Positions 21,563 to 44,434 of a stretch of 64,000 bases of DNA are shown piece after piece. The stretch's first letter is position 1. Each line of letters begins with the position of its first letter. The stretch is from Alphaproteobacteria bacterium (GTDB lineage Bacteria; Pseudomonadota; Alphaproteobacteria; JAQWUY01). Location of the stretch: assembly GCA_029250225.1 (NCBI GenBank), contig JAQWUY010000010.1, forward strand, positions 5,209 through 69,208, in the 5' to 3' direction. The notes beneath the pieces were generated by a model. The model did no database searches, was not told the origin of the DNA, and was given only the letters and a program-made list of their open reading frames with translations. Made by a program: the position numbers and the translations under genes.

Positions 21563-21591
21563 TTGACAAGATAAGAATAATATCCTATTTA
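21563..21591 (+). promoter_or_regulatory. Putative sigma70 promoter of the lysis operon with an embedded 18-bp operator-like box
   Basis: TTGACA at 21563-21568, 17-nt spacer, weak -10 TATTTA. Box ATAAGAATAATATCCTAT at 21571-21588 matches the capsid promoter box at 17/18 positions. Confidence 0.75.
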
Positions 21592-21601
21592 TATAAACAA
21601 T

Positions 21602-21652
21602 AAACACCACAAGTGTATTCAAAATATGGATTCACTTAGTGGTGTTTTTTTT
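21602..21652 (+). terminator. Leader hairpin plus T-tract between the promoter and the first lysis gene (putative attenuator)
   Basis: AAACACCAC-AAGTG...CACTT-A-GTGGTGTTT followed by a T run. Confidence 0.7.
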
Positions 21653-21708
21653 ATTTCAAAAAAATTAACAAGTCAAATAGCCTTAACTAACTAAGGAAGG
21701 AATAATTA

Positions 21709-22032
21709 ATGCAAATATTTAATGGAAATATAACATTTGGCACAGATGTAATAACGTGGATAGTATTTATTGAAATACCGATCTTTATTGCATTTATGAC
21801 ATACATAATAAAACAAAAAGAGACAATGAATAAGAATATAGATTTAGTAAAAATAAATATGGAAAAAAGATATCGTTATTTAAATGAAAAGATAAATAAT
21901 TATAAATTGGAAGTAGCAAAAAAATACGCTTCGGTTTCATATTTAAAAGACGTAGAAAATCGCTTAACCAATCATTTAATTCGTATAGAAGAAAAACTAG
22001 ATAATAAATTAACGAGGTTAGAAAATGAGTAA
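21709..22032 (+). CDS. Membrane-anchored coiled-coil protein, first gene of the phage-like lysis operon
   Basis: SD AAGGAAGG, one TM helix (ITWIVFIEIPIFIAFMTYII), then a coiled-coil segment ending RIEEKLD. Overlaps the endolysin start. Confidence 0.75.
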   Translation: MQIFNGNITFGTDVITWIVFIEIPIFIAFMTYIIKQKETMNKNIDLVKINMEKRYRYLNEKINNYKLEVAKKYASVSYLKDVENRLTNHLIRIEEKLDNKLTRLENE

Positions 22033-22486
22033 TTTGGATTTATTTATGAAACAAGTTTCTGATAACGAAGAACAACAAAATCATATCGATATTATGGCAC
22101 GAACGATATGGGGTGAAGCAAGAGGCGAAGGATTAAAAGGTATGGAAGCTGTTGGTTTTGTCATAATGAATAGATATAAAATATCGAAAATTAAAGGTAA
22201 ATTTTGGTGGGGTAATAACATTAGTGAAATATGTAAAAAGCCTTATCAATTTTCTTGTTGGAATAAAAAAGATGTAAATTACGAAAAATTAATTAATTTA
22301 ACAACTGATGATAAATTATTTACAACAGCAAAAAGAATCGCATCAAAACTAGTTCGTCTTAATAATAATCGTGATATAACAAATTGTGCTGACCATTATC
22401 ATACATTTAATACGAGACCGAATTGGCTTGATGTTGATAAAGTAGTTGCAAATATTGGCAATCATATTTTTTACAAACTATCATAA
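22025..22486 (+). CDS. Cell wall hydrolase, SleB/Hydrolase_2 family (putative endolysin)
   Basis: MARTIWGEARGE, AVGFVIMNR, YQFSCWN, ADHYH, IGNHIFY. No signal peptide. Confidence 0.92.
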   Translation: MSNLDLFMKQVSDNEEQQNHIDIMARTIWGEARGEGLKGMEAVGFVIMNRYKISKIKGKFWWGNNISEICKKPYQFSCWNKKDVNYEKLINLTTDDKLFTTAKRIASKLVRLNNNRDITNCADHYHTFNTRPNWLDVDKVVANIGNHIFYKLS

Positions 22487-22503
22487 ACTAGGGAAAACAA
22501 ACA

Positions 22504-22950
22504 ATGCTTACAAATATATTGTTAAAAACAGGTTTCCCTATATTAATTGATATAGTTAAAAACACTCTATTAAAAAGTAATGATGAAATAGCACAATCTG
22601 CGGGTAAACAATTAGATAAAATAACTAAATTACCAACAAATAAAGAATTATTACAATCAATAACAGAAATTGAAAAACGAGATAGTGAAAAAATAGGGCA
22701 AATAAATACATCACTTCGAACTGAGGTATTATCGCAAGATAAATATGTAAGGCGAATGAGACCTACATTTGGCTATATAATGGCTATTTCTTGGTTTATA
22801 CAAATGACAATAATAGCAATATCTGTAATTACTAACCCGCAAATATCAGGGGAAATAATTAGTTCTTTTGCAGAACTTAGTGTTATGTGGTCGGTTGGAT
22901 TATCTGTGCTAGGTGTTTATGTTTATAAACGAAGTGGCGAAAAAAAATAA
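22504..22950 (+). CDS. Holin resembling the GTA-type 3TM holin family
   Basis: INTSLRTEVLSQDKYVRRMRPTFGY followed by two C-terminal hydrophobic helices and the basic tail LGVYVYKRSGEKK. Adjacent to the endolysin. Confidence 0.82.
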   Translation: MLTNILLKTGFPILIDIVKNTLLKSNDEIAQSAGKQLDKITKLPTNKELLQSITEIEKRDSEKIGQINTSLRTEVLSQDKYVRRMRPTFGYIMAISWFIQMTIIAISVITNPQISGEIISSFAELSVMWSVGLSVLGVYVYKRSGEKK

Positions 22951-22987
22951 TACTATTAAATAAAAAAATGTGGTATAGAATTAAGCT

Positions 22988-24043
22988 ATGAATATAAATA
23001 ACATTGCACTAAATTTTTTAAAATTAATAACCCCTGAAACTGCTCATAACATTACAATTAAAATGTTAAAAAACGGTATATATTTTAAACCTTTTTACAA
23101 AGACGACAAAATATTAAAAACCGAGCTTTGGGGCAAGAAATTTCCAAATCCAGTTGGTTTATCAGCAGGATTTGATAAAAATGGTGAATGTTATAATGCT
23201 ATGCTAGATTTAGGAATGGGGTTTTGTGAAATTGGTTCCGTAACCCCATTGCCACAACAAGGCAACCCTAAACCACGATTATTTAGATTGCCAAAAGACG
23301 GCGCAGTAATAAATAGGTTTGGATTTAACAATCTAGGCATTGATTATGTATATGAACAATTAAAAAAACCGCGTCGTGGAATTGTAGGAATAAACCTAGG
23401 TAAAAACAAGACCACTGCTGACCCAATAATTGATTTCGTCAAAGGTTGTAAAAAATTATCACCCTTAGCAGATTACTTAGTTATAAATGTTTCATCACCC
23501 AATACACCTGGGTTAAGAACATTACAAGGACAAAAAGAATTAACTGATATATTATCAAATGTTCAAAAAACAAGGGATAAAGAGTGTGGTAAAAATCCAC
23601 CACCACTATTAGTAAAAATTGCTCCTGATTTAAATGAACAAGATTTAAATGATATTGCACAAGTTGCGAAAAAATTAAAAATTGATGGTATTATTATCTC
23701 TAATACCACACTAGATAGACCAAATAATTTACATCATAAAGATACTCTTAATGAAGCCGGTGGTTTATCGGGGAAACCTCTATTTAAAAAATCTACTGAA
23801 ATGCTTGCAAAAATGTATAAACTCACTGACGGGAAAATTCCTTTAATAGGTGTTGGTGGAATATCATCAGGAGAAGAAGCATACGAAAAAATATGTAATG
23901 GTGCTTCACTAGTCCAACTCTATTCAGCACTTGTTTATGGTGGTGCTGGATTAATAACAGATATCAAAAAAGATTTAGTAAAAATATTAAAGCAAAATGG
24001 ATTTGAAAATATTAGTCAAGCTGTTGGAAGTAAAGTAAAATGA
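22988..24043 (+). CDS. pyrD: Quinone-dependent dihydroorotate dehydrogenase
   Basis: PETAH, NPVGLSAGFDKNG, GNPKPRLFRL, NVSSPNTPGLR, GGLSGKPL. Confidence 0.97.
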   Translation: MNINNIALNFLKLITPETAHNITIKMLKNGIYFKPFYKDDKILKTELWGKKFPNPVGLSAGFDKNGECYNAMLDLGMGFCEIGSVTPLPQQGNPKPRLFRLPKDGAVINRFGFNNLGIDYVYEQLKKPRRGIVGINLGKNKTTADPIIDFVKGCKKLSPLADYLVINVSSPNTPGLRTLQGQKELTDILSNVQKTRDKECGKNPPPLLVKIAPDLNEQDLNDIAQVAKKLKIDGIIISNTTLDRPNNLHHKDTLNEAGGLSGKPLFKKSTEMLAKMYKLTDGKIPLIGVGGISSGEEAYEKICNGASLVQLYSALVYGGAGLITDIKKDLVKILKQNGFENISQAVGSKVK

Positions 24044-24852
24044 TAATAAATAATATATCTGAAATAATCCAAAAATATGATACTTTCATACTCGATCAAT
24101 GGGGTGTGTTACACAATGGTGGAAATGCATTTGAGCACGCTGTTGAAACACTAAATTTATTAAAAGAAAATAACAAAAAAGTTGTTATATTATCTAATTC
24201 AGGCAAACAAAAACACAACAGTTATATTAGGTTGTCTGAATCTGGAATAAATCGTGATTTATACCTTGATGTAATGACATCAGGCGAACATATGTTACAT
24301 AATTTTAAAAATGGTATGTTTGACAAATTAGGAAAAAACCCAACTTTTTATGATTGGGATAATGATTTTACGATTATGGAAATTTTAGGTTTTAAAAACA
24401 CTGACATTAATACATCTGATTTCATATTATGTTGTGGCGTAGAAAGAGGAGATGCAGAAAAATATATTGAAGATTTAAAAATTGCAAAAGCAAGAAATCT
24501 TGAATTAATCGTTTCTAATCCAGACATAGTAGCAATGAATAAACAAGGCAAATTAAAAGATTGCCCTGGTGCCATTGCGAAATTGTATAAAGAAATGGGT
24601 GGAAAAGTTCATTGGTTTGGAAAACCACAACCAGAAATTTACGAATTATGTTATAAAATGGCTAATGGTTGGAATAATGCTGTTGCTGTTGGTGATAGCC
24701 TTGAACACGATATAAAAGGCGCAATAAAAGCAAATATAGATTCCGTATTTATTACAAGTGGAATACACAAGGAACAAATATCAAAAACAAATCTTGATAA
24801 TGCAATCAAAAAATACGGTCAAAAACCAACATACTCACTAGAATGGTTTTAA
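24040..24852 (+). CDS. HAD-superfamily class IIA hydrolase
   Basis: LDQWGVLHNG, LSNS, NPD, GKP, VGDSLEHDIKGA. Confidence 0.9.
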   Translation: MIINNISEIIQKYDTFILDQWGVLHNGGNAFEHAVETLNLLKENNKKVVILSNSGKQKHNSYIRLSESGINRDLYLDVMTSGEHMLHNFKNGMFDKLGKNPTFYDWDNDFTIMEILGFKNTDINTSDFILCCGVERGDAEKYIEDLKIAKARNLELIVSNPDIVAMNKQGKLKDCPGAIAKLYKEMGGKVHWFGKPQPEIYELCYKMANGWNNAVAVGDSLEHDIKGAIKANIDSVFITSGIHKEQISKTNLDNAIKKYGQKPTYSLEWF

Positions 24853-24871
24853 AATTTTAATTTAATATATT

Positions 24872-25582
24872 TTATGGTTTTTTAGCTAATCTATTACTAG
24901 CTGTTTCAATATCTTGTTGTAGTTTTTTCATAAATTGCTCTTTGCTTAAACCTGGTTTTATCTCAGGCAAAAACTCCATTGTGACACGACCTTTTTTGCC
25001 ATTCCACAATCCTCTATTCCAATATAAACCTGTATTTAATGCAACTGGTACAACAGGTATATTTAATTCACTATATAATATGTAAACACCCTGTTTATAT
25101 GCAGGTTCTGAACCTAATGGGCGACGAGTCCCTTCTGGGAAAATAGATAGAACACAATCTCTTTCATATATTTTTTTTGACTCTTGAATCATTTTTATAA
25201 CTGAATCACGCCCCTTCGAACGATCAATTGGAACCATTCCTGAACGCCAAAAATATAATCCAAGAATTGGTATATACATCAATGTTTTTTTCATTATCCA
25301 AACACTATTTTGTATAACAGCAGCAAACCAAAATGCTTCATAAGTTGATTGATGTTTTAATACATATATAACTGGATGTTTTGCAATATTTTCAGTACCA
25401 ATAATACGGCGTTTAAATCCGAATATAAAATCATTAACATTCACAAATATAATACAATAAATACTGCATATTTTACGCACATATTTCTTCGGCAAGAATA
25501 AAACCCAAAACATAAAAATTAAAAACGCAAAAATAGTTAATGCGAACATAAAGTAATATAAGGATATTTTAAATATTTTCAT
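24872..25582 (-). CDS. plsC: 1-acyl-sn-glycerol-3-phosphate acyltransferase
   Basis: KHQSTYE, PIDR, IFPEGTR, VPVALNTG. Confidence 0.9.
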   Translation of the reverse strand: MKIFKISLYYFMFALTIFAFLIFMFWVLFLPKKYVRKICSIYCIIFVNVNDFIFGFKRRIIGTENIAKHPVIYVLKHQSTYEAFWFAAVIQNSVWIMKKTLMYIPILGLYFWRSGMVPIDRSKGRDSVIKMIQESKKIYERDCVLSIFPEGTRRPLGSEPAYKQGVYILYSELNIPVVPVALNTGLYWNRGLWNGKKGRVTMEFLPEIKPGLSKEQFMKKLQQDIETASNRLAKKP

Positions 25583-25603
25583 AAAGTTATTTTTACCACA
25601 ATA

Positions 25604-27091
25604 TTACAAAACTGTAAAATCATTTTGTGCTTTTGTTGGTTCGACTCCCCTATTCCACTTTGCTAATGTTTTACCGTTATAAGAACGGTTAAATCGCGTA
25701 GGTTCAAAATTTAAGCAATGAGAAACAGCATCTATCATATCATCTTTATTATTTTTTTCTGTTGGTTTAAAATCGCTTAGTTGTTCTAAAAACCCAGTTT
25801 TTATAATTTTTTTATTTATATACAAATGTTGAGCATCTAAAACACTATCAAATGCTGACATTATTCGATTATTTTTTATTTGTTTAGATGTAAAGGGAAG
25901 CACTGAAAGTTTTATATTTTTATTATCAAGTATTGATTTTAATAATTCTGGTAAAAATTTTCCCACTCCATTACTTTCTAAATTTATGCTAGGTAAATAA
26001 TTCCTTGTCGCAAAATCAATTACACTCAAACATTGCGAACGAGCAGGATCAATATTAGAGTATTTATTAACATCTATTTTTTCTAAATCTTGTAAATAAT
26101 ATTTACCATCATCACCTGTAAATACACACGCAATAACACTATCATCCCCACCAATGCTTCCATAAGATGGATCCCAAGAAGCAGAAACTGAATTCATTTT
26201 TACTCCATTAATGGATAATACAAATTTATTATTTTGATAAGATATCTCAATATTTCCATCGTATATTTTCACTTGTGATGAATTTAATCTAGACTCACTC
26301 GGATTCACACATTGTAATTGCATTTGTGAATTAAACTTTTCTTCTCCATGTCTAATTTTTAATAATTTTATTTCTTTTTCCGAAAATCGTTCTGCCCAAG
26401 ACGATTTACCTTTTTCATTTATTATAGGTATTTCAAGGCGATTAAAACCATATAAAAACGGTGATATGTCACCTATTTTATCTTTGCGATATATAGAATA
26501 ATAATTATGAGGTGTGCCAACATATAACTGCATTCCATTAGGAACTAGAATATAGTCAACTTCTCCTAATCTCTGCCTTAAACTTTCTCTCTTTGAAGCA
26601 GTTGCAGAAGTATTTGGAACTTCTACATCATCACATATTATTATATCTGCTCTACTTCCCGTAATATTTCCAAGTATTCCTTCGGCTGTCATTGAAGGGT
26701 CTCGTAATTCCATATCACGATTTACAGTAAAACAATTGCCCGCCCATTGTTCTGCTTTTTTAGGCTTTAAGTTTTTAGTTAATTCGTGTCTTTCAATAAT
26801 TCTTTTTACAGTTCGCACCATTTTTCTTGCTAAGTCGCTTTCCGCAGATATAACCATAATTCTAATACTGGGATTTAAATATAATACCCAAGCGCAAAAC
26901 AATCCAACCATAGTCGATTTACCTGCTCCACGAAATGCCATAAGTAGTGCTTTTTCATTCCCATCTATCCAACTTTTATGTAAAAAAGAAATAATTTTTT
27001 TATGAATATTTGGGGTAATAAAGTTTTGATTTTTATTCCACATTTCAACAAATTGTAAAAAATTTTTTTGATCTGGTAAAAAATTCCGCAT
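25604..27091 (-). CDS. terL: Phage terminase large subunit (T7 gp19-like)
   Basis: Walker A AFRGAGKST, GSRADIIICDDVE (Walker B), VGTPH, nuclease SWDPS, LESNG, DDMIDA. Uninterrupted 495-aa ORF. Confidence 0.93.
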   Translation of the reverse strand: MRNFLPDQKNFLQFVEMWNKNQNFITPNIHKKIISFLHKSWIDGNEKALLMAFRGAGKSTMVGLFCAWVLYLNPSIRIMVISAESDLARKMVRTVKRIIERHELTKNLKPKKAEQWAGNCFTVNRDMELRDPSMTAEGILGNITGSRADIIICDDVEVPNTSATASKRESLRQRLGEVDYILVPNGMQLYVGTPHNYYSIYRKDKIGDISPFLYGFNRLEIPIINEKGKSSWAERFSEKEIKLLKIRHGEEKFNSQMQLQCVNPSESRLNSSQVKIYDGNIEISYQNNKFVLSINGVKMNSVSASWDPSYGSIGGDDSVIACVFTGDDGKYYLQDLEKIDVNKYSNIDPARSQCLSVIDFATRNYLPSINLESNGVGKFLPELLKSILDNKNIKLSVLPFTSKQIKNNRIMSAFDSVLDAQHLYINKKIIKTGFLEQLSDFKPTEKNNKDDMIDAVSHCLNFEPTRFNRSYNGKTLAKWNRGVEPTKAQNDFTVL

Positions 27092-27122
27092 TTATGCCCT
27101 TTCTTATTATTTATGAGTTTCA

Positions 27123-27155
27123 ATATTTGTAGGCGAAAAAATCACCTACAAATAT
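27123..27155 (-). promoter_or_regulatory. 14-bp stem hairpin in the intergenic space upstream of terL
   Basis: Minus strand ATATTTGTAGGTGA-TTTTT-TCGCCTACAAATAT with one G-U pair and no clear U-tract. Confidence 0.6.
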
Positions 27156-27167
27156 ATTCTCTAACAA

Positions 27168-27461
27168 TTATGATTTAGGATATTTATTTTTTATTTCTAT
27201 TATTTTATCTTTCCATTTAGTCGTACCGTTAACTAAATCATGATAAATCAAATCTAGTTGTTCTGATATTTCAGGATATTCAGCTTGTCTTTCTTCTATG
27301 TAATTTATTTCTGTTATAGGTTTGACAATTTTACCGTTTTTTATTGTATCTCCTATATTGGCATCAGCTAAATAACCAACTGCCGAAATACCTCCTTGGA
27401 CTTCACCAACCACAATATTTTCAACTATATTATTTTTAATAATTAAATATTTATCACTCAT
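27168..27461 (-). CDS. Phage tail-fibre-associated small protein (assembly chaperone-like)
   Basis: C-terminal YIEERQAEYPEISEQLDLIYHD...WKDKIIEIKNKYPK is a pattern typical of small genes following phage tail fibres. Start overlaps the fibre stop codon. Confidence 0.7.
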   Translation of the reverse strand: MSDKYLIIKNNIVENIVVGEVQGGISAVGYLADANIGDTIKNGKIVKPITEINYIEERQAEYPEISEQLDLIYHDLVNGTTKWKDKIIEIKNKYPKS

Positions 27462-28822
27462 TATACATAATCAACTTCTATATATCCATTTGAACCCGTA
27501 TTGCCGTTGAAACCATATCCCAGATGACCATTATCATCTTTTCCTGCTAAACCACCAGCACCTACTATATAATCAAATACATCACCCGATGATAATACTT
27601 TTATAGCTTTAACTAAACCACCGTTTCTACCGTCTTGAGCGTATTTAAAATCATGTGATCCACCACCAGCACCATTACCGCCACCGCCGGCTATAACCAT
27701 TCCTCCAGAACCAGAAGCTCCTGTTTGACCAGCTGTATCATTTTCATATGCTCCTTTACCACCTCGACCACCATAAGCAGTAATGTGTAAAGAATAGATT
27801 GATGTATTGCCACCTCGACCACCGTGATTTCTTCTTTGTCTTTTCCAGCCGTGACCACCACCGCCGCCGCCGCCGGCAAGTTTAAATAAAACTTTTCCAG
27901 CAGGTAATTCTATATGATTTTTATTACTAGGCATCGTTCCGGTTGTTGATGATGATTGATCTGCTAACGACCAAACATTCGAAGGATTAATATTGTTAGG
28001 TAGTGAACCATCTGTATTTCGCACAAAAAACTTACCACTTTTTTGAGTAAATATTGATGTAGGTAAAGCTCCGCTTATACCCGAAATATCTGCTTTATTT
28101 TTAAAATCTTCATTAGAGACATTTGATAAATTTTTTCCTGCATAAATTTCATTCATTTCATCAACTAAGCCAGAAACCAACAATTTACTTTTAAAATCTT
28201 CATTAGAGACATTTGATAAATTTTTTCCTGCATAAATTTCATTCATTTCATTGTATTTAGTTTCTAATATTCTACGATTTCGCGTTGTAATATCAGCATT
28301 ATTTTTAGCATCGATAGAAAATCTCTCGGCCTGTAAAGTAGATTGAGATAAATCTTTATAAATTTTTGTTCTACCTAAACTATCAAAACCAAGTATACTA
28401 TTTGATCGTTTTTTTGCAGTTGGTAAAATCATATTCATATCATCATCTGATAAAGGTGTACGAATACTATCCTTAGAATATCTACCTACTTGTTGTAATA
28501 ACATTATAATTCTATCAAATTCTTCATTAATTACACTGGCACGAAAATCCTCGTTTTCTCTGAATATAGTTTGACGATTATAAGTCATATGACGATAAAT
28601 CGTAATACGAGTTCCAACACTAAGTGGTTGTGATAAATCAATATGTCCGCCAATTGTTTCTTTTAATATTGTGACTGTATAATTATTAAGCTCAATACCA
28701 TCTGATGTAATAACTTTAATATCTTGTTTATTTAAAACAGGAAAATTAAACTCAAACCTTGTTTTTTGCTCATCACCATCATTAATAGTATAATTTACTC
28801 TTGGGTTTAATCTTGATGTCAT
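27461..28822 (-). CDS. Podovirus-type tail fibre protein
   Basis: N-terminal anchor (DGDEQKTRFEFNFPV...DIKV...ITIYR...INEEFDRIIMLLQQ) resembles the T7 gp17-type attachment domain. It has central NLSNV repeats and a Gly-rich C-terminal domain. Confidence 0.85.
   Translation of the reverse strand: MTSRLNPRVNYTINDGDEQKTRFEFNFPVLNKQDIKVITSDGIELNNYTVTILKETIGGHIDLSQPLSVGTRITIYRHMTYNRQTIFRENEDFRASVINEEFDRIIMLLQQVGRYSKDSIRTPLSDDDMNMILPTAKKRSNSILGFDSLGRTKIYKDLSQSTLQAERFSIDAKNNADITTRNRRILETKYNEMNEIYAGKNLSNVSNEDFKSKLLVSGLVDEMNEIYAGKNLSNVSNEDFKNKADISGISGALPTSIFTQKSGKFFVRNTDGSLPNNINPSNVWSLADQSSSTTGTMPSNKNHIELPAGKVLFKLAGGGGGGGHGWKRQRRNHGGRGGNTSIYSLHITAYGGRGGKGAYENDTAGQTGASGSGGMVIAGGGGNGAGGGSHDFKYAQDGRNGGLVKAIKVLSSGDVFDYIVGAGGLAGKDDNGHLGYGFNGNTGSNGYIEVDYV
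28099..28251. repeat. Exact 63-bp direct repeat with 90-bp period inside the tail fibre gene
   Basis: 28099-28161 is identical to 28189-28251 and encodes EMNEIYAGKNLSNVSNEDFK twice in frame. Confidence 0.95.
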
Positions 28823-29154
28823 TATTTACCATCACTCATTTTTTTTACAGTTTTAGCGAATAAATTAATTCTATTTAATATATTACCGCCACTACCTGCT
28901 CGATTGTAAAAAGGTTGTTTTATAAATTTATTTATTTTACCTAATTGCCTATTATAGGTTCTGCCTGTGTAACCATCGGCATATTGCCTAGCACGGCGAA
29001 AGGCAAGATTTCGCCTAACTTCTTGTTTTTGTTCTCTATATTTTTTTTCATTTAATATATTTTGTTTTTTTATTTCTCTATCATTTCGATCTTCTTGCCT
29101 ATCCATTTCATCATATTGAAGTGCAAGTGTTATCATTGGTAATGCTTCTGCCAT
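28822..29154 (-). CDS. Hypothetical virion-operon protein (possible internal/ejection protein)
   Basis: 110 aa with SD AAAGGA, translationally coupled to the fibre gene. It follows the nozzle gene, the position of podovirus internal virion proteins. Confidence 0.6.
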   Translation of the reverse strand: MAEALPMITLALQYDEMDRQEDRNDREIKKQNILNEKKYREQKQEVRRNLAFRRARQYADGYTGRTYNRQLGKINKFIKQPFYNRAGSGGNILNRINLFAKTVKKMSDGK

Positions 29155-29204
29155 TTTTTAATTCCTTTCTATTAAATTATTTAAAAAATCTATATATTAT
29201 TTCT

Positions 29205-30842
29205 TTAATTAATCGAAACATCTGTTTTAATTGATAATATTGTAATTGGTAATGGACTATCACCTGATATATTCCACAAACTATCGCTACTATAATTTTG
29301 CCAACCTAGTATACTGATTGATTTATCACCGCTAAACAAAGAAATTGGTTTATTTAAAATTCCCTGTCCGAATTTTTGAAAAGATAATGTATTTGTTCTA
29401 CCGCCAACCTCAATTTTTAATGATGCAGTATTCTTTAATCGGATTGTAATATTGCGAATTCTTATTTTTCTGCCTGTTTGTTCACTAGATAAAGGTAATG
29501 ATTTAATTGTATGTTTATATTTATAACCCAAGAATATTTTGTTAGCTTTATTATTTAAATCAATGATTCCATTATTAACTACAACTTCTTTGTGTAAAAT
29601 ATTATCAGCAACTAACATTGCTTTTTTACCATTAAAGGTATCAAAACCACTAAATTGAAAAGCTGGTTCTTCTGTTTTTTTTATAATACAGCAATCCATT
29701 AATACCTCTTTTGAAAAAACCTCTAAGAAATATTGCTCTGCTCTTTTCACAACAGTGTAAATGTAATCTTTATTAGTTCCAACACTTATATATTGTCCAT
29801 CTGTTTCATATGATGACCACGCTGAAACACCTTCAACATAATCATTATTTAAAACAGCCATAGTTCCATCTTTTTTGACACAAAATAACCTATTATGTTT
29901 GAAACTAAATGCAATATCAGTAATATCTTTTGTCAAATGCTTTGATATCGATACAATTGGACAAGCCTTATAATTTAAAGACATATTTTCGTTTTGTTTA
30001 AAAGAATAAATATTATTACAATCTGAATTTACAAATAAAACTTCATCTTTTGTATCAACTACATTAATATTTGAATTTCTTGGTGAACCTATCGTAGTAT
30101 ATTTTTTCGCTAAAATTTTATTTGGCGTTATTGGGCTACCCTCAATAATCCATTCACCAGAATTTGTAAATAATATTAAATAAGAACTACAATACAAATT
30201 AGATATAAAATCATTACCCGTTGATAATAATTTAATATCTATTCCTTCATCATCTAAACTTTCTCCTAACGAAAAATCACTTTCTGAACCAGATCTAGAA
30301 AACCATATACGATTAGGATGCTCCTTTGTACCAGCAATAACTATACGACCTTGGAAAAAACCTATAGTTTTTGGATAACCACTTGAAGAATTAAATAAAT
30401 TATCTTCAAATCCTGAAAAATTAGTATCTTCTATGGAAAAAATATTATCTTGATAAGATATTCTTTTTATTGGATAATCACCAGAACAAATCCATAATGA
30501 ATTATTGTTTTCACTAAAAAATAAATTTTTCAATTTTGATTTAGGAAAAGGAGTAATAAGTTGCGTTATTTTACTTTTCCCCTTGTATATATCAACTTTT
30601 CTATCGTGAAAAACAGCCAAATAATCATCTTCTTGTACAGAAAAATTAATTAATCTTGCCTCGGTTGGTAATTCACCCAATAAAACAGAACCACTTCTTC
30701 TAATTACACCACCTGTATTTAAAACATTAACATTTATTAATTTACTTGCTCCATTATTATAAGTTTCTAAATCACCACGGCCATATAAATCAGATGTTAC
30801 TTCACCGCTGGTAAATGATGTTTTTAAAATTATTTGTTTCAT
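29205..30842 (-). CDS. Podovirus tail tubular protein B / nozzle-like protein
   Basis: N-terminal SFTSGEV...GRGDL..Y..G.....NV.....GGVIRRSGS, YPKTIGFFQGRIVIAG, IWFSRSG...F, VSAWS, PLPITILSI. Confidence 0.82.
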   Translation of the reverse strand: MKQIILKTSFTSGEVTSDLYGRGDLETYNNGASKLINVNVLNTGGVIRRSGSVLLGELPTEARLINFSVQEDDYLAVFHDRKVDIYKGKSKITQLITPFPKSKLKNLFFSENNNSLWICSGDYPIKRISYQDNIFSIEDTNFSGFEDNLFNSSSGYPKTIGFFQGRIVIAGTKEHPNRIWFSRSGSESDFSLGESLDDEGIDIKLLSTGNDFISNLYCSSYLILFTNSGEWIIEGSPITPNKILAKKYTTIGSPRNSNINVVDTKDEVLFVNSDCNNIYSFKQNENMSLNYKACPIVSISKHLTKDITDIAFSFKHNRLFCVKKDGTMAVLNNDYVEGVSAWSSYETDGQYISVGTNKDYIYTVVKRAEQYFLEVFSKEVLMDCCIIKKTEEPAFQFSGFDTFNGKKAMLVADNILHKEVVVNNGIIDLNNKANKIFLGYKYKHTIKSLPLSSEQTGRKIRIRNITIRLKNTASLKIEVGGRTNTLSFQKFGQGILNKPISLFSGDKSISILGWQNYSSDSLWNISGDSPLPITILSIKTDVSIN

Positions 30843-31387
30843 AATCTAACATCCGTTAAAATATTGAAATCAAGATTGGTATTCATTTCCTGAGATGCAT
30901 CAACAAGTCTAGCTTGCTTGAATTCATTTTCATATCTTCTAAATAAAAATTCTGTTCTTGTTGTACTATCTGTTAAAGGCAAACATATTTCAGCACATAT
31001 TCTAAAAACTAATACATTGTCAAAATAAGGCGGGAAATTTTCTTCCTCTGGACGGAAAATATAATCGACTTCAATATTTTGTGTTGTTGTAATTAAAATA
31101 TTATTATGTATTTGGTATTGATTAGCATTTACTTTTAATATTCTTAGACAATCTGCTGGCAATGAAAAATTATATAACCCTTTATCATCAACATTTAATA
31201 ATTGTAATCTTTTTGTTTTTATTGCAAATCGCCATTGATACGATGATAATAATCCATCGCGTATACCATCATAACTTTCTTTTAGAACCATTGCCTCAGA
31301 TGTATTTTCATTAAATCCTTGGATTGGTGTTACACCTATACTTACTAAAGCACGATTTACTAAATCAATTTTATTTTTTGCCATCAT
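30839..31387 (-). CDS. Podovirus tail tubular protein A / head-tail adaptor-like protein
   Basis: IDLVNRALVSIGVTPI, YD..RD.LL..YQWRFA, F.LPADCLRI, FPPYF, ARLVDASQ. SD AAAGGA supports ATG 31387 or 31384. Confidence 0.82.
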   Translation of the reverse strand: MMAKNKIDLVNRALVSIGVTPIQGFNENTSEAMVLKESYDGIRDGLLSSYQWRFAIKTKRLQLLNVDDKGLYNFSLPADCLRILKVNANQYQIHNNILITTTQNIEVDYIFRPEEENFPPYFDNVLVFRICAEICLPLTDSTTRTEFLFRRYENEFKQARLVDASQEMNTNLDFNILTDVRL

Positions 31388-31397
31388 TATTCCTTTC

Positions 31398-31427
31398 AAA
31401 AAAAAGCCCCCGAATGATTACGGGGGC
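31398..31427 (-). terminator. Strong intrinsic terminator between the capsid genes and tail genes
   Basis: Minus strand GCCCCCG-TAATCATT-CGGGGGC-TTTTTTTT. Confidence 0.9.
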
Positions 31428-31452
31428 AAGTTTATTAATAATTAATGTATAA

Positions 31453-31710
31453 TTAATCTGTGTCAGATACCGGCAATGCAAGCGGATCTTTAGTATCAAC
31501 AACACCATTATCATTTGTTGCAACAGATACAAAACCAACTTTATCAAGTGCTGAAACAATAATCATATCACCTACACGAAGCATTTCATTAGCACTGTTT
31601 AGGTAACCTTGTGTATCAACATCATCAATATTATCAGTTGTTTTTAAATGCCATAATGTAAAACCATTTGCATATGCTAATACTGATAAATCTGTAATTT
31701 TAAACGCCAT
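31453..31710 (-). CDS. Small protein co-transcribed with the capsid gene (candidate decoration/cement protein)
   Basis: 85 aa, strong SD GGAGG, LSVLAYANGFTLWH...GYLN.ANEMLRVGDMI. Lies between the capsid gene and the terminator. Confidence 0.75.
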   Translation of the reverse strand: MAFKITDLSVLAYANGFTLWHLKTTDNIDDVDTQGYLNSANEMLRVGDMIIVSALDKVGFVSVATNDNGVVDTKDPLALPVSDTD

Positions 31711-31721
31711 ATTTTACCTCC

Positions 31722-32561
31722 TTACTCTGCACATTCCATTTTAACAATACCATCGGTATCAATCACACCGGCACCTTGGCTCATCATATTATTGATAAAG
31801 AAAGATGCACGGTCACCGTGCCACGAAACATCAGTTTTTACATTACTACCTGATGCATGAGCAATAGAATTCTTGTGATACCAGTAACATTGTCTTGCTC
31901 CACTCTTAAGTGTTAAACCACTGTGTGGCAACCATAATGTTCCTAACCACCTTTTAGCTTGCGTTGTCTTCCAAGGTAAATCTTCTTTCCCAATGTATTC
32001 AGAATTTGCAAATTCTTTTATTTCCATTAGATCAGACCACTGCTTCCAACCAACAATCGCATACCTTTCACCATCATCAGCAACATCTTTTTCGCCTAAT
32101 TTTTCAAATGCTGATAATACTTTTTGTTTTGTTAAACCTTCTGATGATTTATATCCTGTTTTATTTACAGTAGTTGTATCAATCGATGCATTACTATCAA
32201 GTGCATTAATTATAAGTTCATCAGTTTTACGACCTAATGCATATGCACCCGCATTTGCAACTACCCTTTTTTCATCGTGGTTTATTTTTAATTCATCTAA
32301 TTTATCTAACCAATCACCTGCATAGTAATCATACAAAGATATTTCAATCGGTGTATGATTAATATTCATTACTGGAACTTGTCCATTACGAGATTTAATC
32401 CCCGCAGAACCCTTGCCAACGGCTTGAAAAGTTGTTGATGAACCTCTTACATTATTACGCGTGCGAACTGTTGTTCTTAGTTTAGAACCTGTGCGTTGAT
32501 ACGCCTGATGTACTTCTGCTTCAAAAGAGCGAATAAACGATAATTCAAGATTTTTACTCAT
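31722..32561 (-). CDS. Phage major capsid protein (podovirus type)
   Basis: FIRSFEAEVHQAYQRTGSKLRTTVR, DWLDKLDELK, AYALGRKTDELII, WSDLMEIKEFANSEYIG, MSQGAGVID. First gene of the virion operon, SD AAAGGA. Confidence 0.87.
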   Translation of the reverse strand: MSKNLELSFIRSFEAEVHQAYQRTGSKLRTTVRTRNNVRGSSTTFQAVGKGSAGIKSRNGQVPVMNINHTPIEISLYDYYAGDWLDKLDELKINHDEKRVVANAGAYALGRKTDELIINALDSNASIDTTTVNKTGYKSSEGLTKQKVLSAFEKLGEKDVADDGERYAIVGWKQWSDLMEIKEFANSEYIGKEDLPWKTTQAKRWLGTLWLPHSGLTLKSGARQCYWYHKNSIAHASGSNVKTDVSWHGDRASFFINNMMSQGAGVIDTDGIVKMECAE

Positions 32562-32622
32562 TTCTTAAATCCTTTCTTAATTATTATAATTCTTAGAGAA
32601 TAAATATTTTGATTACCCAAAT

Positions 32623-32651
32623 AAAAAAACACCCAGTAAAAATGGATGTTT
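32623..32651 (-). terminator. Leader hairpin plus T-tract upstream of the capsid gene (putative attenuator)
   Basis: Minus strand AAACATCCA-TTTTTAC-TGGGTGTTT-TTTT, a 9-bp stem with one G-U pair. Confidence 0.62.
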
Positions 32652-32770
32652 AAAAAAGGTCAATAATATTTATGTAAAGACTATGGGCTGTAAAAGTTAT
32701 CCATAAAAAACATTTAAATGATTAAAATATAATATATTTTAGATACACCTTCTGCATGTTTTCAAAATAT

Positions 32771-32799
32771 GTTATATAGGATTTTATTCTTATTGTCAA
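32771..32799 (-). promoter_or_regulatory. Putative sigma70 promoter of the virion operon with an embedded 18-bp operator-like box
   Basis: Minus strand TTGACA-17 nt-TATAAC. The spacer is occupied by ATAAGAATAAAATCCTAT (32793-32776). Confidence 0.8.
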
Positions 32800-32807
32800 T
32801 AGAAAAG

Positions 32808-33116
32808 TTAATCTTTGCGGTAAAAATATCTCTTCTGATGAAAAAATACTCTATGGAATAATCGTATTGAAATTATTGCCATAAACAAATAATAAATATT
32901 ATATTCATATATGTAAGGACTTATAATTAATGATTTTTCTTGCGCAACTAGAATATTTGTTCCATCAATTATTAAATAGATAAATACAAATAATAAAAAA
33001 TTTAAAAATGAATTATTTGTTAAGAAAGATTCATTCTTAAATGCACCTGCAAATAAAAGAGAGTAAAATAAAGAAGTACTTAAATACCAAAAGTTTTGTT
33101 GTAAAAATTCAACCAT
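32808..33116 (-). CDS. Hypothetical small membrane protein
   Basis: 102 aa with three hydrophobic segments and a basic C-terminus. Confidence 0.55.
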   Translation of the reverse strand: MVEFLQQNFWYLSTSLFYSLLFAGAFKNESFLTNNSFLNFLLFVFIYLIIDGTNILVAQEKSLIISPYIYEYNIYYLFMAIISIRLFHRVFFHQKRYFYRKD

Positions 33117-39365: not shown

Positions 39366-39724
39366 ATAGGTAGCGGTGCAATTACATTGTTATGGGGGAA
39401 ATCCCTTACAATGAGGAAAGTCCGGGCTGTCCAACAAACGATACCAGTTAACGGCTGGCGGGGGTAACCCTAGGGAAAGTGGCACAGAAAGCAAACCACC
39501 TTGATTTATCAAGGTAAGGGTGAAAGGGTGTGGTAAGAGCACACCGCGTTGTTAGTAATAACAATGGCAGGCTAAACCCTATTGACAGCAACGCCTAAGG
39601 TCAGTATATGTGGGGGTGTTGGCGAAACATATACACATTGACTACGGGGGCAAGAGGTAAACAGTGATGTTTATCCCAGATGAATGATTGCGTAATAACA
39701 GAATCCGGCTTACAAGCTACCTAT
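39366..39724 (+). ncRNA. rnpB: RNase P RNA (bacterial type A)
   Basis: GAGGAAAGTCCGGGC, ACAGAAAGCAAACC, GGGTGAAAGGGTGTGGTAAGAGCACACC, AGATGAATG, ACAGAATCCGGCTTA. The termini ATAGGTAGC and GCTACCTAT pair as P1. Confidence 0.96.
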
Positions 39725-40338
39725 TTCTTATTATATAAATTTTTAAAATTGATAGCTGTTTCAGTTATATCTTGGGTTTCAAATAAACCACTTATAACTG
39801 CTATGCCATCACTACCATTATCAATTAAAGCTTTGGCATTATTTAATGTAATGCCCCCTATTGCCACACAAGGAATTAATATTTTATCACGCAATGCTTT
39901 AAACCCATCAACACCTATTGGTTTGCCGGCGTTTGATTTTGTACCTGTTTCGTAAACCGCTCCGATACCGACATAATCAACCACTGAAACATCTAGATTT
40001 TTTAATTCTTGCATATTACCAACAGATAAACCAATGATTGCTGAATTACCTAAATAATCCCTAGCTGATTTTGCTTTCATATCGTTTTGTCCTAAATGAA
40101 CACCATCAGCATCAACGGTTTTTGCTACATCGACAGCATCGTTTATTATTAGTGGGATATTATGTGGGGTAATGATTTCTTGTAATGAACCTGCTTGTTT
40201 TATCATATCAAGTGTTTCAATATTTTTTGGGCGGTATTGTAATACATCAATCCCGCCGGCAACAGCTTTTTCAACTTTGTCGAGCATAGTTTGTGTATCC
40301 CACCTATAATCTGTGATTGCGTAGAGATTGTATCGCAT
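39721..40338 (-). CDS. thiE: Thiamine-phosphate synthase
   Basis: LYAITD, QYRPK, IIND, GVHLGQND, TGTK, AIGGI, GIAVIS. Confidence 0.95.
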   Translation of the reverse strand: MRYNLYAITDYRWDTQTMLDKVEKAVAGGIDVLQYRPKNIETLDMIKQAGSLQEIITPHNIPLIINDAVDVAKTVDADGVHLGQNDMKAKSARDYLGNSAIIGLSVGNMQELKNLDVSVVDYVGIGAVYETGTKSNAGKPIGVDGFKALRDKILIPCVAIGGITLNNAKALIDNGSDGIAVISGLFETQDITETAINFKNLYNKK

Positions 40339-43462: not shown

Positions 43463-44268
43463 TACCAAACCTTGTAAAAATGATTTATTGGACCGGAACC
43501 TGAACCTATATCAAGTTCATCAGACCTTGCAACAGCACCAGCAATATAATTTTTTGCATTTTGCACTGATGTTTTAATATCGTTTCCTTTCGCAACAAAA
43601 CTAGCAATAGCCGAAGACATAGAACAACCCGTACCGTGGGTGTTTTTAGTATTAATTCGTGGAGAAGTCATAGAAATTATATCACTTCCATCGTAATATA
43701 AATCGTGTAATACATCACCTTGCATATGTCCACCTTTTAATAAAACAGATTTTGCTCCCAACTTTAATAATTCAACACAATAATCTTCCATATCTTGTAA
43801 ATTAGGTTGAGTTGTTTTATTTAAAAGAACCATTGCCTCAGGTATATTCGGAGTAATAATATCAGAAGAAGGAATAAGACGCTGTTTTAAAGCATCAACT
43901 CCTTCCTCATTTAATAATTTACAACCAGACTTAGAAATCATAACCGGATCAAGTACAATATTTTTAGCCCCTAGTGATCTTAGAGCCGATGCAACCGCAA
44001 ATGTTAATTCAGGTGTTCCTAACATTCCTATTTTAACCGCATCAATATCTAAGTCATCGTAAACTGTTTCAATTTGCTCAATAACAAATTCAGGCGAAAC
44101 AGGAAATATAGAACGAACTTCACGAGTATTTTGTGCTGTTAATGCTGTGATAACTGATGCACCATATACACCAAGTGCAGACATTACTTTTAAATCGGCT
44201 TGTATACCGGCGCCACCGCCACTATCAGAACCAGCAATAGTTAAGCACACAGGTATTTTTTGTTTCAT
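43462..44268 (-). CDS. thiD: Hydroxymethylpyrimidine/phosphomethylpyrimidine kinase
   Basis: LTIAGSDSGGGAGIQADLK, TALTAQNT, KIGML, DPVM, TPNIPEA, THGTGC. Confidence 0.97.
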   Translation of the reverse strand: MKQKIPVCLTIAGSDSGGGAGIQADLKVMSALGVYGASVITALTAQNTREVRSIFPVSPEFVIEQIETVYDDLDIDAVKIGMLGTPELTFAVASALRSLGAKNIVLDPVMISKSGCKLLNEEGVDALKQRLIPSSDIITPNIPEAMVLLNKTTQPNLQDMEDYCVELLKLGAKSVLLKGGHMQGDVLHDLYYDGSDIISMTSPRINTKNTHGTGCSMSSAIASFVAKGNDIKTSVQNAKNYIAGAVARSDELDIGSGSGPINHFYKVW

Positions 44269-44272
44269 ATTA

Positions 44273-44361
44273 CCATTCCCTTCGTAAGTATTAACTAACA
44301 GGTTCAACGGGTAAGGAATAAAATAAAATCATCCTATCTCAACAAATATGTACCCCGATGG
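44273..44361 (-). promoter_or_regulatory. TPP riboswitch
   Basis: Minus strand CCATCGGGGTAC...TGAGA...ACCCGTTGAACCTG..GTTAATAC..CGAAGGGAATGG immediately before the thiD ATG. The SD lies within the aptamer 3' strand. Confidence 0.9.
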
Positions 44362-44434
44362 AATTAAAATTATGCTATACAAAAAAGAAAATTAAGTAAA
44401 GACTTTTTTTGAAATTAATTGTATAAAATAAATT

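Follow-up and report, generated by a model that had tools for sequence, protein, structure and literature searches.

A chromosomally fixed, podovirus-derived gene set of Alphaproteobacteria as a candidate gene transfer agent

Virion and lysis operons of the window

We describe a set of phage-derived genes that lies partly in a stretch of 64,000 nucleotides (the window) on contig JAQWUY010000010.1 of assembly GCA_029250225.1, from a marine alphaproteobacterium. The window carries a virion operon running from capsid to terminase (25604-32561, minus strand) and a lysis operon (21709-22950, plus strand), which face each other across the host genes pyrD, a HAD hydrolase gene and plsC (22988-25582) and have ppa and nadABC as outer neighbours. 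An original prediction, made from the sequence letters, placed both operons here and read them as a domesticated, replication-less podovirus-type set, distinct from the gene transfer agent (GTA) RcGTA and not a decaying prophage. Its account of the locus stands: all the genes it listed are intact open reading frames (ORFs) at the predicted places (by the ORF listing and three profile libraries), the host neighbours are seen in profile searches, and the core of its reading holds. Judging by the genes, we regard it as more likely than not that the two window clusters make up one half of a replication-less, GTA-like set, fixed in the chromosome at four loci, which derives from a podovirus of the T7 supergroup and is independent of RcGTA in origin.

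The virion operon begins with the gene for the major capsid protein (31722-32561, minus strand; PF19821, 3.7e-77), the single match to this family in the whole source genome. The next gene, which always follows the capsid gene, encodes an acidic protein of 85 residues (31453-31710, minus strand; phrog_18004, 8.5e-16) that is presumably a decoration or head-completion protein; it is present in 76 of 80 related loci, and its position is homologous in the Pelagibacter phage Hodr. A GC-rich hairpin with a T-run (31406-31427, minus strand; 7 G-C pairs, then T8) lies between the 85-residue and adaptor genes and, dividing the capsid and 85-residue genes from the tail genes, appears attenuator-like. 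The tail genes code for the adaptor (tail tubular protein A, gp11-like; 30839-31399, minus strand; phrog_394, 4.1e-41), the nozzle (tail tubular protein B, gp12-like; 29205-30842, minus strand; phrog_376 tail protein, 1.9e-101), a very basic protein of 110 residues (28822-29154, minus strand) and the tail fibre (27461-28822, minus strand). The 110-residue protein, placed between nozzle and fibre, has no family match in the profile libraries (Pfam, phrog); the protein at this position in a compact relative, L073, weakly matches the internal virion protein family phrog_418 (E 0.005), and a small internal virion protein is a possible assignment. The fibre matches phrog_1640 and other tail fibre families in residues 8-123 only, and by these matches it consists of a T7-like N-terminal adaptor-binding domain and a lineage-specific distal part. 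Its gene contains two copies of 68 nt (28094-28251; 99% identical, 90 nt apart), a recent duplication of 30 codons in the fibre shaft. Between fibre and terminase lies the gene for a 97-residue protein (27168-27461, minus strand; phrog_9114, 9e-16, a family without assigned function), which by position is presumably fibre chaperone-like and has no homology to the 99-residue protein that holds this position in relatives. The operon ends with the large terminase TerL of T7 type (25604-27091, minus strand; NCBIfam NF033889 termin_lrg_T7, 3.2e-111; phrog_38, 5e-78). In an alignment of 51 rows TerL has no stops, and the residues that we take to be Walker A, Walker B and the acidic nuclease residues are at least 95% conserved.

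The lysis operon consists of three genes. The first encodes a protein of 107 residues (21709-22032, plus strand; phrog_29007, 2e-24), which has a membrane helix at its N-terminus and also a coiled coil. In 42 of the 80 related loci this gene stands immediately after TerL and ahead of the endolysin, and by position the protein is presumably a spanin-like lysis accessory. It is followed by the endolysin, a cell wall hydrolase (22025-22486, plus strand; PF07486, 1.3e-17; phrog_938, 1e-21) that is 44% identical to a gene product of phage Hodr, and by a holin of the three-transmembrane GTA family (22504-22950, plus strand; PF11351 GTA_holin_3TM, 2.1e-9, above the cut-off; phrog_3427 holin). The guanine-cytosine content of the operons (0.27-0.33, against 0.26-0.35 across the window) bears out the host-like composition that the prediction had judged by eye.

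Portal and scaffold loci on other contigs

The source genome (G000) has a completeness score of 100%; its 48 contigs add up to 1,197,446 bases. The portal and scaffold genes that the prediction had sought elsewhere in the genome are found on contigs C5 and C11. Its two operons are thus both present, but the set occupies four loci on three contigs, with about 16 genes, all of them intact. The sole match to a T7-type portal (PF12236, ~1e-72, 5e-72) is an intact gene on C5, part of an operon c97-c131-portal-c78 that is divergent from the gene of a 232-residue protein with helix-turn-helix (HTH) and S24-peptidase domains; this portal locus is placed between the host genes DUF2948 and asd. A search with the promoter motif shared by the window operons (see below) yields a third copy on C11, in front of a lone gene of 256 residues with host genes on both sides. 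The encoded protein has a match in PF05396, the family of T7 capsid assembly (scaffold) proteins (2.8e-8), and is 29% identical (1e-27) to the product of the gene between portal and capsid in L073. The structural module of the T7 supergroup is hence complete (PF12236, PF05396, phrog_394, phrog_376, phrog_1640, NF033889), and we are highly confident, as far as sequence can tell, that the particle, packaging and lysis genes of such a podovirus were domesticated here.

Profiles for the HK97-type capsid (PF05065) and the GTA_TIM domain of RcGTA (PF13547) have no match in G000; both controls matched in Caulobacter. Replication genes are found at none of the four loci, and the phage-type RNA polymerase PF00940 has no match in the genome, in a search run without a positive control. 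Tyrosine recombinases give two matches only, both on C32, and no integrase is found near any of the four loci. Together with the window, in which no att-like flanking repeat and no transfer RNA (tRNA) gene were found, this agrees with the predicted lack of integrase and att repeats.

The conserved proteins c97 and c131 of the portal operon have no Pfam, PDB-sequence or NCBIfam match. The model of c97 is a four-helix fold (predicted local distance difference test, pLDDT, 90.9); c131 (pLDDT 90.2) has invariant Arg-His and Cys residues, and its structural relatives are uncharacterised phage proteins only (BFVD, 6 matches at E<=1e-3). Assignments of the two as small terminase or Q-like antiterminator were tried and rejected, as neither model finds its fold in the PDB (best E 0.14 and 1.9). 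A conserved N-terminal motif F-x4-E-A-x2-W of c97 (alignment with 20 homologues; L003:6377-6424, contig C5) lies in G000 upstream of the first ATG, GTG or TTG, and thus of the TTG start codon. Probably c97 either begins with a non-canonical start, for example the ATA that lies 9 nt past AGGAG, or has lost its N-terminal end. These two proteins, with confident models and no fold relatives in the PDB, could be cargo or effectors, which would suit a particle co-opted without DNA transfer, for example for protein-cargo delivery or as a compartment. The conserved terminase, portal, nozzle and fibres argue instead for a DNA-filled, receptor-binding virion, and the structural relatives of c131 occur only among phage proteins; we consider such a co-option very unlikely.

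A shared promoter and an SOS-type control region

The lysis promoter (21563-21591, plus strand) is read from the sequence as a -35 hexamer TTGACA (21563-21568) and a -10 hexamer TATTTA (21586-21591), with the inverted-repeat operator ATAAGA-N6-TCCTAT (21571-21588) in the spacer. The promoter of the capsid operon (32771-32799, minus strand) has the same parts: TTGACA at 32799-32794, ATAAGA-N6-TCCTAT at 32793-32776 and TATAAC as -10 hexamer. The first bases of these two near-identical promoters, in their -35 hexamers, are positions 21563 and 32799, the very ends of the segment that the prediction had marked out. The operator occurs exactly three times in G000, against about 0.6 expected from base composition (our own estimate), namely at the scaffold, lysis and capsid promoters. 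Each copy begins 0-3 bases past TTGACA and so occupies the -35/-10 spacer. One common promoter/operator at three of the four loci supports the co-regulation that had been proposed for the two window operons. In the sister species G003 the capsid promoter has the same architecture with variant half-sites.

Both window operons have terminator-like leaders. Between the lysis promoter and the first lysis gene lies a stem-loop followed by a U8 run (21602-21655, plus strand), intrinsic-terminator-like, with a fold of -20.9 kcal/mol (z -5.4; none of 200 shuffles equally good). The capsid leader of G003 has a hairpin homologous to this one plus a second terminator, which folds at -30 kcal/mol (z -4.8); G000 retains the second terminator at its capsid operon (32627-32651, minus strand). 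Rfam gave no family match at the leaders.

The HTH and S24-peptidase protein of the portal locus (L003:5484-6182, minus strand) is, by its sequence relationships, a CI-like repressor: in L073 the homologous protein falls among phage repressors (phrog_4, 5e-30, and a CI-like family). Its identification as LexA is ruled out, the true LexA being encoded on C14; there lexA adjoins comEC on the opposite strand (G000:C14:117593-119529), with dprA 13 kb away. The original statement that the system has no repressor is consequently wrong at the level of the genome. The motif G-[DE]-S-M is kept in the repressors of 26 of 32 relatives. A perfect LexA box, GTTC-N7-GTTC, lies between repressor and c97 (L003:6266-6280), is also present in G003, and recurs in exact form in the same intergenic region of 13 of 34 relatives, against a chance expectation of about 0.02 per locus (our own estimate). 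For the portal locus, an SOS-type trigger is thus likely to be ancestral. Another perfect LexA box, the only one in the window, is inside plsC and was discarded, since such sites are at chance level (21 matches against 27 expected, with at most one mismatch).

Occurrence and arrangement among relatives

Of 401 genomes chosen to sample the class, 99 have a match to the capsid protein at E<=1e-3. By hand count, 65 genomes (G000 included) match over the full length at 49-82% identity with one copy each, and these carriers represent about 42 of some 208 family codes. The capsid is undisrupted in 63 of the 65, the exceptions being G387, which has stops, and G162, in which the gene is split. The window's own taxonomic order is represented by four genomes, of which all but G001 have the capsid. 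An intermediate tier at 38-42% identity, between the conserved chromosomal copies and remote phage-like matches, comprises G063 and G233 (one family code), G078 (two copies) and G365; it may consist of genuine prophages or mark another lineage that was domesticated. In named genomes, at least 597 capsid matches were confirmed. The best 80 of these, all in Alphaproteobacteria and many ending at contig ends, form the related loci used here; they come from Azospirillum and other Azospirillaceae, Rhodospirillaceae, Thalassospiraceae, Aestuariispiraceae, Caenispirillum and Elioraea, and include a Geminicoccaceae bin, Micavibrio and many further bins.

All proteins of the G000 element were compared with the 80 loci by tblastn. 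Besides the capsid (80/80) and the 85-residue protein (76/80), the adaptor is found in 71, the nozzle in 67, the fibre in 56, TerL in 52, the portal in 43, the 107-residue protein in 42, c131 in 35, the repressor and pyrD in 34 each, the endolysin in 22, the holin and the HAD gene in 12 each, and c97 in 4. The recurrent order is repressor (minus strand), c97-like gene, c131, portal, in some cases scaffold, capsid and 85-residue gene, followed by adaptor, nozzle, fibre, TerL, 107-residue gene, endolysin and holin, and then pyrD and the HAD gene. A capsid in single copy, in about 42 family codes and with pyrD as recurrent neighbour, is in line with the conserved context that the prediction implied.

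The arrangement varies between one locus and several. In L073 the whole element spans about 12.5 kb with 15-16 genes, the scaffold gene lying between portal and capsid. About 20 of the 80 loci have a full upstream flank of 10 kb from which the portal is absent. The closed chromosome of G002 has the capsid at 1.286 Mb and the portal at 0.214 Mb, the closed genome of G283 has them at 2.214 Mb and 0.718 Mb, and in G358 they are on separate contigs. G003 has repressor-c97-c131-portal-c78-scaffold in one cluster, and G002 has murA-DUF2948-c131-portal-c78-scaffold, with repressor and c97 missing there; the scaffold gene, by this comparison, has moved away from the portal cluster in G000. Azospirillum-type loci carry a host HAMP-PAS-GGDEF-EAL gene between scaffold and capsid (L058:6695-9082, L072:4184-6526).

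These arrangements bear on whether the element is still mobile, either as a temperate podovirus with unrecognised replication and integration functions or as a helper-dependent satellite that repeatedly hits the pyrD neighbourhood. The CI-like repressor with its divergent promoter is phage-like, the nearest relatives are true phages, and a 5-kb record labelled "Bacteriophage sp." has a capsid 54% identical to ours. Against this, no integrase was found near the loci and no att repeat or tRNA in the window; none of 10 extra ORFs from four relatives is a replication or integration gene (5 of the 10 have no family match); parts lie 1-1.5 Mb apart in closed genomes with host genes interleaved; and capsid divergence follows both taxonomy and the neighbouring pyrD. 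We judge continued mobility highly improbable. A set that has repeatedly been broken into distant pieces cannot propagate as a phage.

Descent and selection

Among 50,697 phage records, the closest true phage capsid is that of phage Hodr (43% identity); those of other pelagiphages and Vibrio phages reach about 28-30%, and the closest phage TerL is less than 30% identical. Between chromosomal relatives of different families the identities are 61-67% for the capsid and 39-49% for TerL. The 54% capsid mentioned above is from MT838907.1 (H1), an unannotated faecal virome record of 5,084 bases, which may be a chromosomal fragment recovered from the particle fraction.

In a capsid tree of 111 rows, a quick tree in which kin share labels, the copies from chromosomes lie together in a shallow clade, and the branch of Hodr has a length of 4.09. 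The taxon labels require 37 changes on this tree (minimum 30; shuffled mean 54.4), a value that none of 200 shuffles reached. Two records, L047 (titled Mesoflavibacter) and L109 (a Micavibrio bin filed under Bdellovibrionota), cluster with alphaproteobacterial capsids, and their labels therefore look unreliable. Pairwise capsid distances correlate with those of pyrD in 25 genomes (Spearman 0.58; 0 of 1000 permutations as high), and the capsid evolves more slowly (mean pairwise distance 0.25 vs 0.40). The capsids thus group by taxon, in line with the congruence test that the prediction proposed, with the nearest phage on a long branch.

The ratios of nonsynonymous to synonymous substitution rates (dN/dS; Nei-Gojobori, G000 vs G003) are well below 1, as the prediction had also anticipated: 0.15 for the capsid, 0.17 for the adaptor, 0.22 for the fibre, 0.23 for the 85-residue protein, 0.24 for the nozzle and 0.49, the highest of the element genes, for the 110-residue protein, against 0.07 and 0.12 for the host genes nadA and nadB, all rough values because dS (0.9-1.5) is near saturation. 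The patterns indicate, with the reservation that kin are not independent, that the set is inherited vertically with the host chromosome under purifying selection, over a large share of the Alphaproteobacteria. That it consists of functionless remnants of a decaying prophage, kept by chance, is hardly credible. The genes are indeed scattered, the catalytic site of the G000 repressor is degenerate, a congener of G002 has lost the set and two of 65 capsids are disrupted; but none of the 16 element genes is broken, in a streamlined genome of 1.2 Mb, 63 capsids from about 42 family codes are undisrupted, the dN/dS values range from 0.15 to 0.49, the capsid is better conserved than pyrD, and the dispersed pieces keep matched promoters.

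Further features of the window

Between nadA and the capsid promoter lies an ORF for a hydrophobic protein of 102 residues (32808-33116, minus strand). It has no family match, is kept at the same place in G003 (41% identity, dN/dS 0.15), has a promoter-like site of its own and is not part of the capsid operon. The window also contains two ordinary host features, an RNase P RNA (39366-39728, plus strand; 266.8 bits) and a thiamine pyrophosphate riboswitch (44260-44367, minus strand; 59.7 bits). Contigs of two sequencing runs overlap in part, at 90-99% likeness, with the genes for holin, TerL, nozzle-fibre and capsid; an RNA origin of these runs is a guess, and the overlap cannot show transcription.

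Proposed function

We propose that a stress signal, probably of SOS type, would open the promoter of the portal locus; SOS is considered probable because of the LexA box between repressor and c97 and the cleavable CI-like repressor of most relatives. The signal would then pass from the portal locus to the other promoters, where a dedicated factor (candidates are the repressor and the conserved c97 or c131) would act on the operator common to scaffold, capsid and lysis genes, and transcription would read through the leader terminators. Portal and scaffold would be the base on which proheads form, and these would be filled with cellular DNA by the T7-type TerL. Adaptor, nozzle and fibres would then join, and holin and endolysin would release short-tailed particles. 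Of the single readings of the genes, function as a gene transfer agent fits best, and we lean modestly towards it.

Several points weigh against this function. The element has none of the large internal (ejection) proteins that its phage relatives possess, which makes DNA delivery hard to explain. T7-type terminases normally cut at specific concatemer junctions, so that non-specific packaging is an assumption here. A small terminase was not identified in G000 by profile searches, and the 99-residue protein upstream of TerL in relatives (phrog_31793, no assigned function) is missing in G000 and Azospirillum. With respect to control, the G000 repressor reads S-N-D-Y at the aligned position and has lost the serine of G-D-S-M, so that self-cleavage may be lost; no LexA box was found at the capsid, lysis and scaffold promoters; and the portal locus of G002, being without repressor and c97, makes the SOS link weak in this family. 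Among the element loci of G003, its operator variant was seen at the capsid promoter only; in that genome, 83% complete, the variant is not enriched, with 6 matches against 7 for a control pattern. The close relative G001, a congener of G002, is 99% complete and has neither capsid nor portal, and the roughness of the dN/dS ratios given above counts on the same side.

Some of these points would equally suit the main rival, a defective-phage particle of PBSX type that lyses its producer and is selected for killing and competition, for release of DNA or public goods, or for defence. PBSX-type defective phages are SOS-induced and chromosomally fixed and package host DNA without self-transfer; PBSX itself is a myovirus-like killing particle of Bacillus. 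An intact head-tail-lysis set without replication genes, an SOS-type control region, the lack of large ejection proteins, an obstacle to DNA delivery, and fibres that differ strongly between lineages all fit such a particle. On the other side, the ATPase and nuclease motifs of TerL, and likewise the portal, equal the capsid in conservation, which implies that DNA packaging is under selection, and comEC and dprA, both present in G000, are kept in a genome of 1.2 Mb, though both genes are widespread. ComEC and DprA form the uptake route in recipients of RcGTA. We regard a PBSX-like role as unlikely and modestly prefer the gene transfer agent.

To our knowledge, very few GTA families have been described, and those of Alphaproteobacteria are either siphovirus-like (RcGTA) or confined to Bartonella. 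The present set is a strong candidate, by its gene content, for a new kind of gene transfer agent. If this is true, lineages without the large clusters of RcGTA hold a second domesticated particle system, class-wide and of another morphotype, and capsid-mediated gene exchange could be ancestral or recurrent over most of the class, abundant marine and plant-associated groups among them. The arrangements in one, two and four loci form a natural series for the dismantling of a phage genome with co-regulation retained. For direct tests in cultured carriers, the set would also offer the conserved proteins c97 and c131 without fold relatives and a compact unit of promoter, operator and terminator.

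Comparison with known systems

The element differs from an autonomous phage of the T7 supergroup in being distributed over four loci on three contigs, with no replication module seen at these loci, and from an integrated temperate prophage in having no nearby integrase, att repeats or tRNA and a distribution that follows taxonomy. Like gene transfer agents, it consists of chromosomal particle genes of phage origin and has no functions for replication or integration. The defining property of a GTA is the packaging of random host DNA in particles unable to carry their own gene set, a point on which the position of the parts, on different contigs or over 1 Mb apart in closed relatives, bears indirectly.

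The nearest free phage is Hodr (Pelagibacter phage EXVC031P, OQ414635.1), and phages of the HTVC010P/Hodr type are, by sequence comparison, the nearest living relatives of the ancestor. The identities to the present set are 43% for the capsid, 31% for the portal, 29% for the adaptor, 27-29% for the nozzle, 24% for the scaffold and 44% for the endolysin, and the order portal-scaffold-capsid-small protein-adaptor-nozzle is identical. The phage is circularly permuted and has 34 kb and about 60 genes, whereas the element has about 12.5 kb and is chromosomally fixed. The phage also has large proteins past the nozzle that the element does not have, and its terminase gives no match at E<=0.01.

RcGTA and the present element are both replication-less sets of head, tail, packaging and lysis genes that have a fixed place in the chromosomes of Alphaproteobacteria, descend vertically, are under purifying selection and have parts at several loci; their holins belong to the same Pfam family, PF11351. 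RcGTA has an HK97-type capsid and a siphovirus tail, whereas this set combines a PF19821 capsid with T7-type portal, scaffold, TerL, adaptor and nozzle. Being without the HK97 capsid and the RcGTA tail genes, and having a different ancestor, it is not of RcGTA type (Rhodogtaviriformidae). The control of RcGTA is known to involve CtrA and GafA; here a CI-like repressor and a LexA box take that place. The two also do not occur together in our sample: none of the 33 genomes positive for PF13547 is among the 99 of 401 that are positive for the capsid (lists compared by eye). Section 3.4 of Shakya et al. (PMC5721377) describes large RcGTA clusters as absent in Rhodospirillales and Micavibrio; small clusters only are given there for Rhodospirillales, Rickettsiales, Micavibrio and SAR116. 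PMC9254644, in the parts relevant here, deals with RcGTA-like head genes and not with the present set. The leader terminators recall the anti-termination control reported for the GTA of Caulobacter (bioRxiv 10.1101/2023.11.12.565669, as summarised there).

Closer in morphotype is FpGTA of Faecalibacterium prausnitzii, which is described in the relevant parts of PMC12946183 (2026) as a podovirus-like, GTA-like element of two operons with holin and endolysin in the second. The same source calls it the first among GTA-like elements to have a morphology like that of podoviruses; if so, an alphaproteobacterial one was undescribed by January 2026. We found no earlier description of the present element in the literature searched, subscription journals and supplements lying outside that search. 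The host of FpGTA differs in belonging to the Firmicutes, and the comparison with the present set is by description only.

A final comparison concerns Azospirillum. A. lipoferum and Azospirillum sp. B510 are reported to release mitomycin-C-induced particles with random host DNA of about 10 kb (PMC3899980, section 2.8, and PMC3245306, both citing Boyer et al. 2008), and in the sections concerned the citing authors tentatively gave these particles to HK97-like terminase-portal-protease-capsid regions. Azospirillum genomes, including that of an A. lipoferum strain (L046), carry the present element. The control region of the element has SOS features. If the two belong together, the Azospirillum GTA, described in 2008 and never tied to genes, gains a concrete candidate gene set. 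As a joint reading, which we put forward tentatively, the element would represent a second, ancient, podovirus-derived GTA family of Alphaproteobacteria, fixed beside pyrD before a Rhodospirillales-like radiation in exactly those deep-branching groups that lack RcGTA, SOS-inducible, and the basis of the random-DNA particles of Azospirillum.

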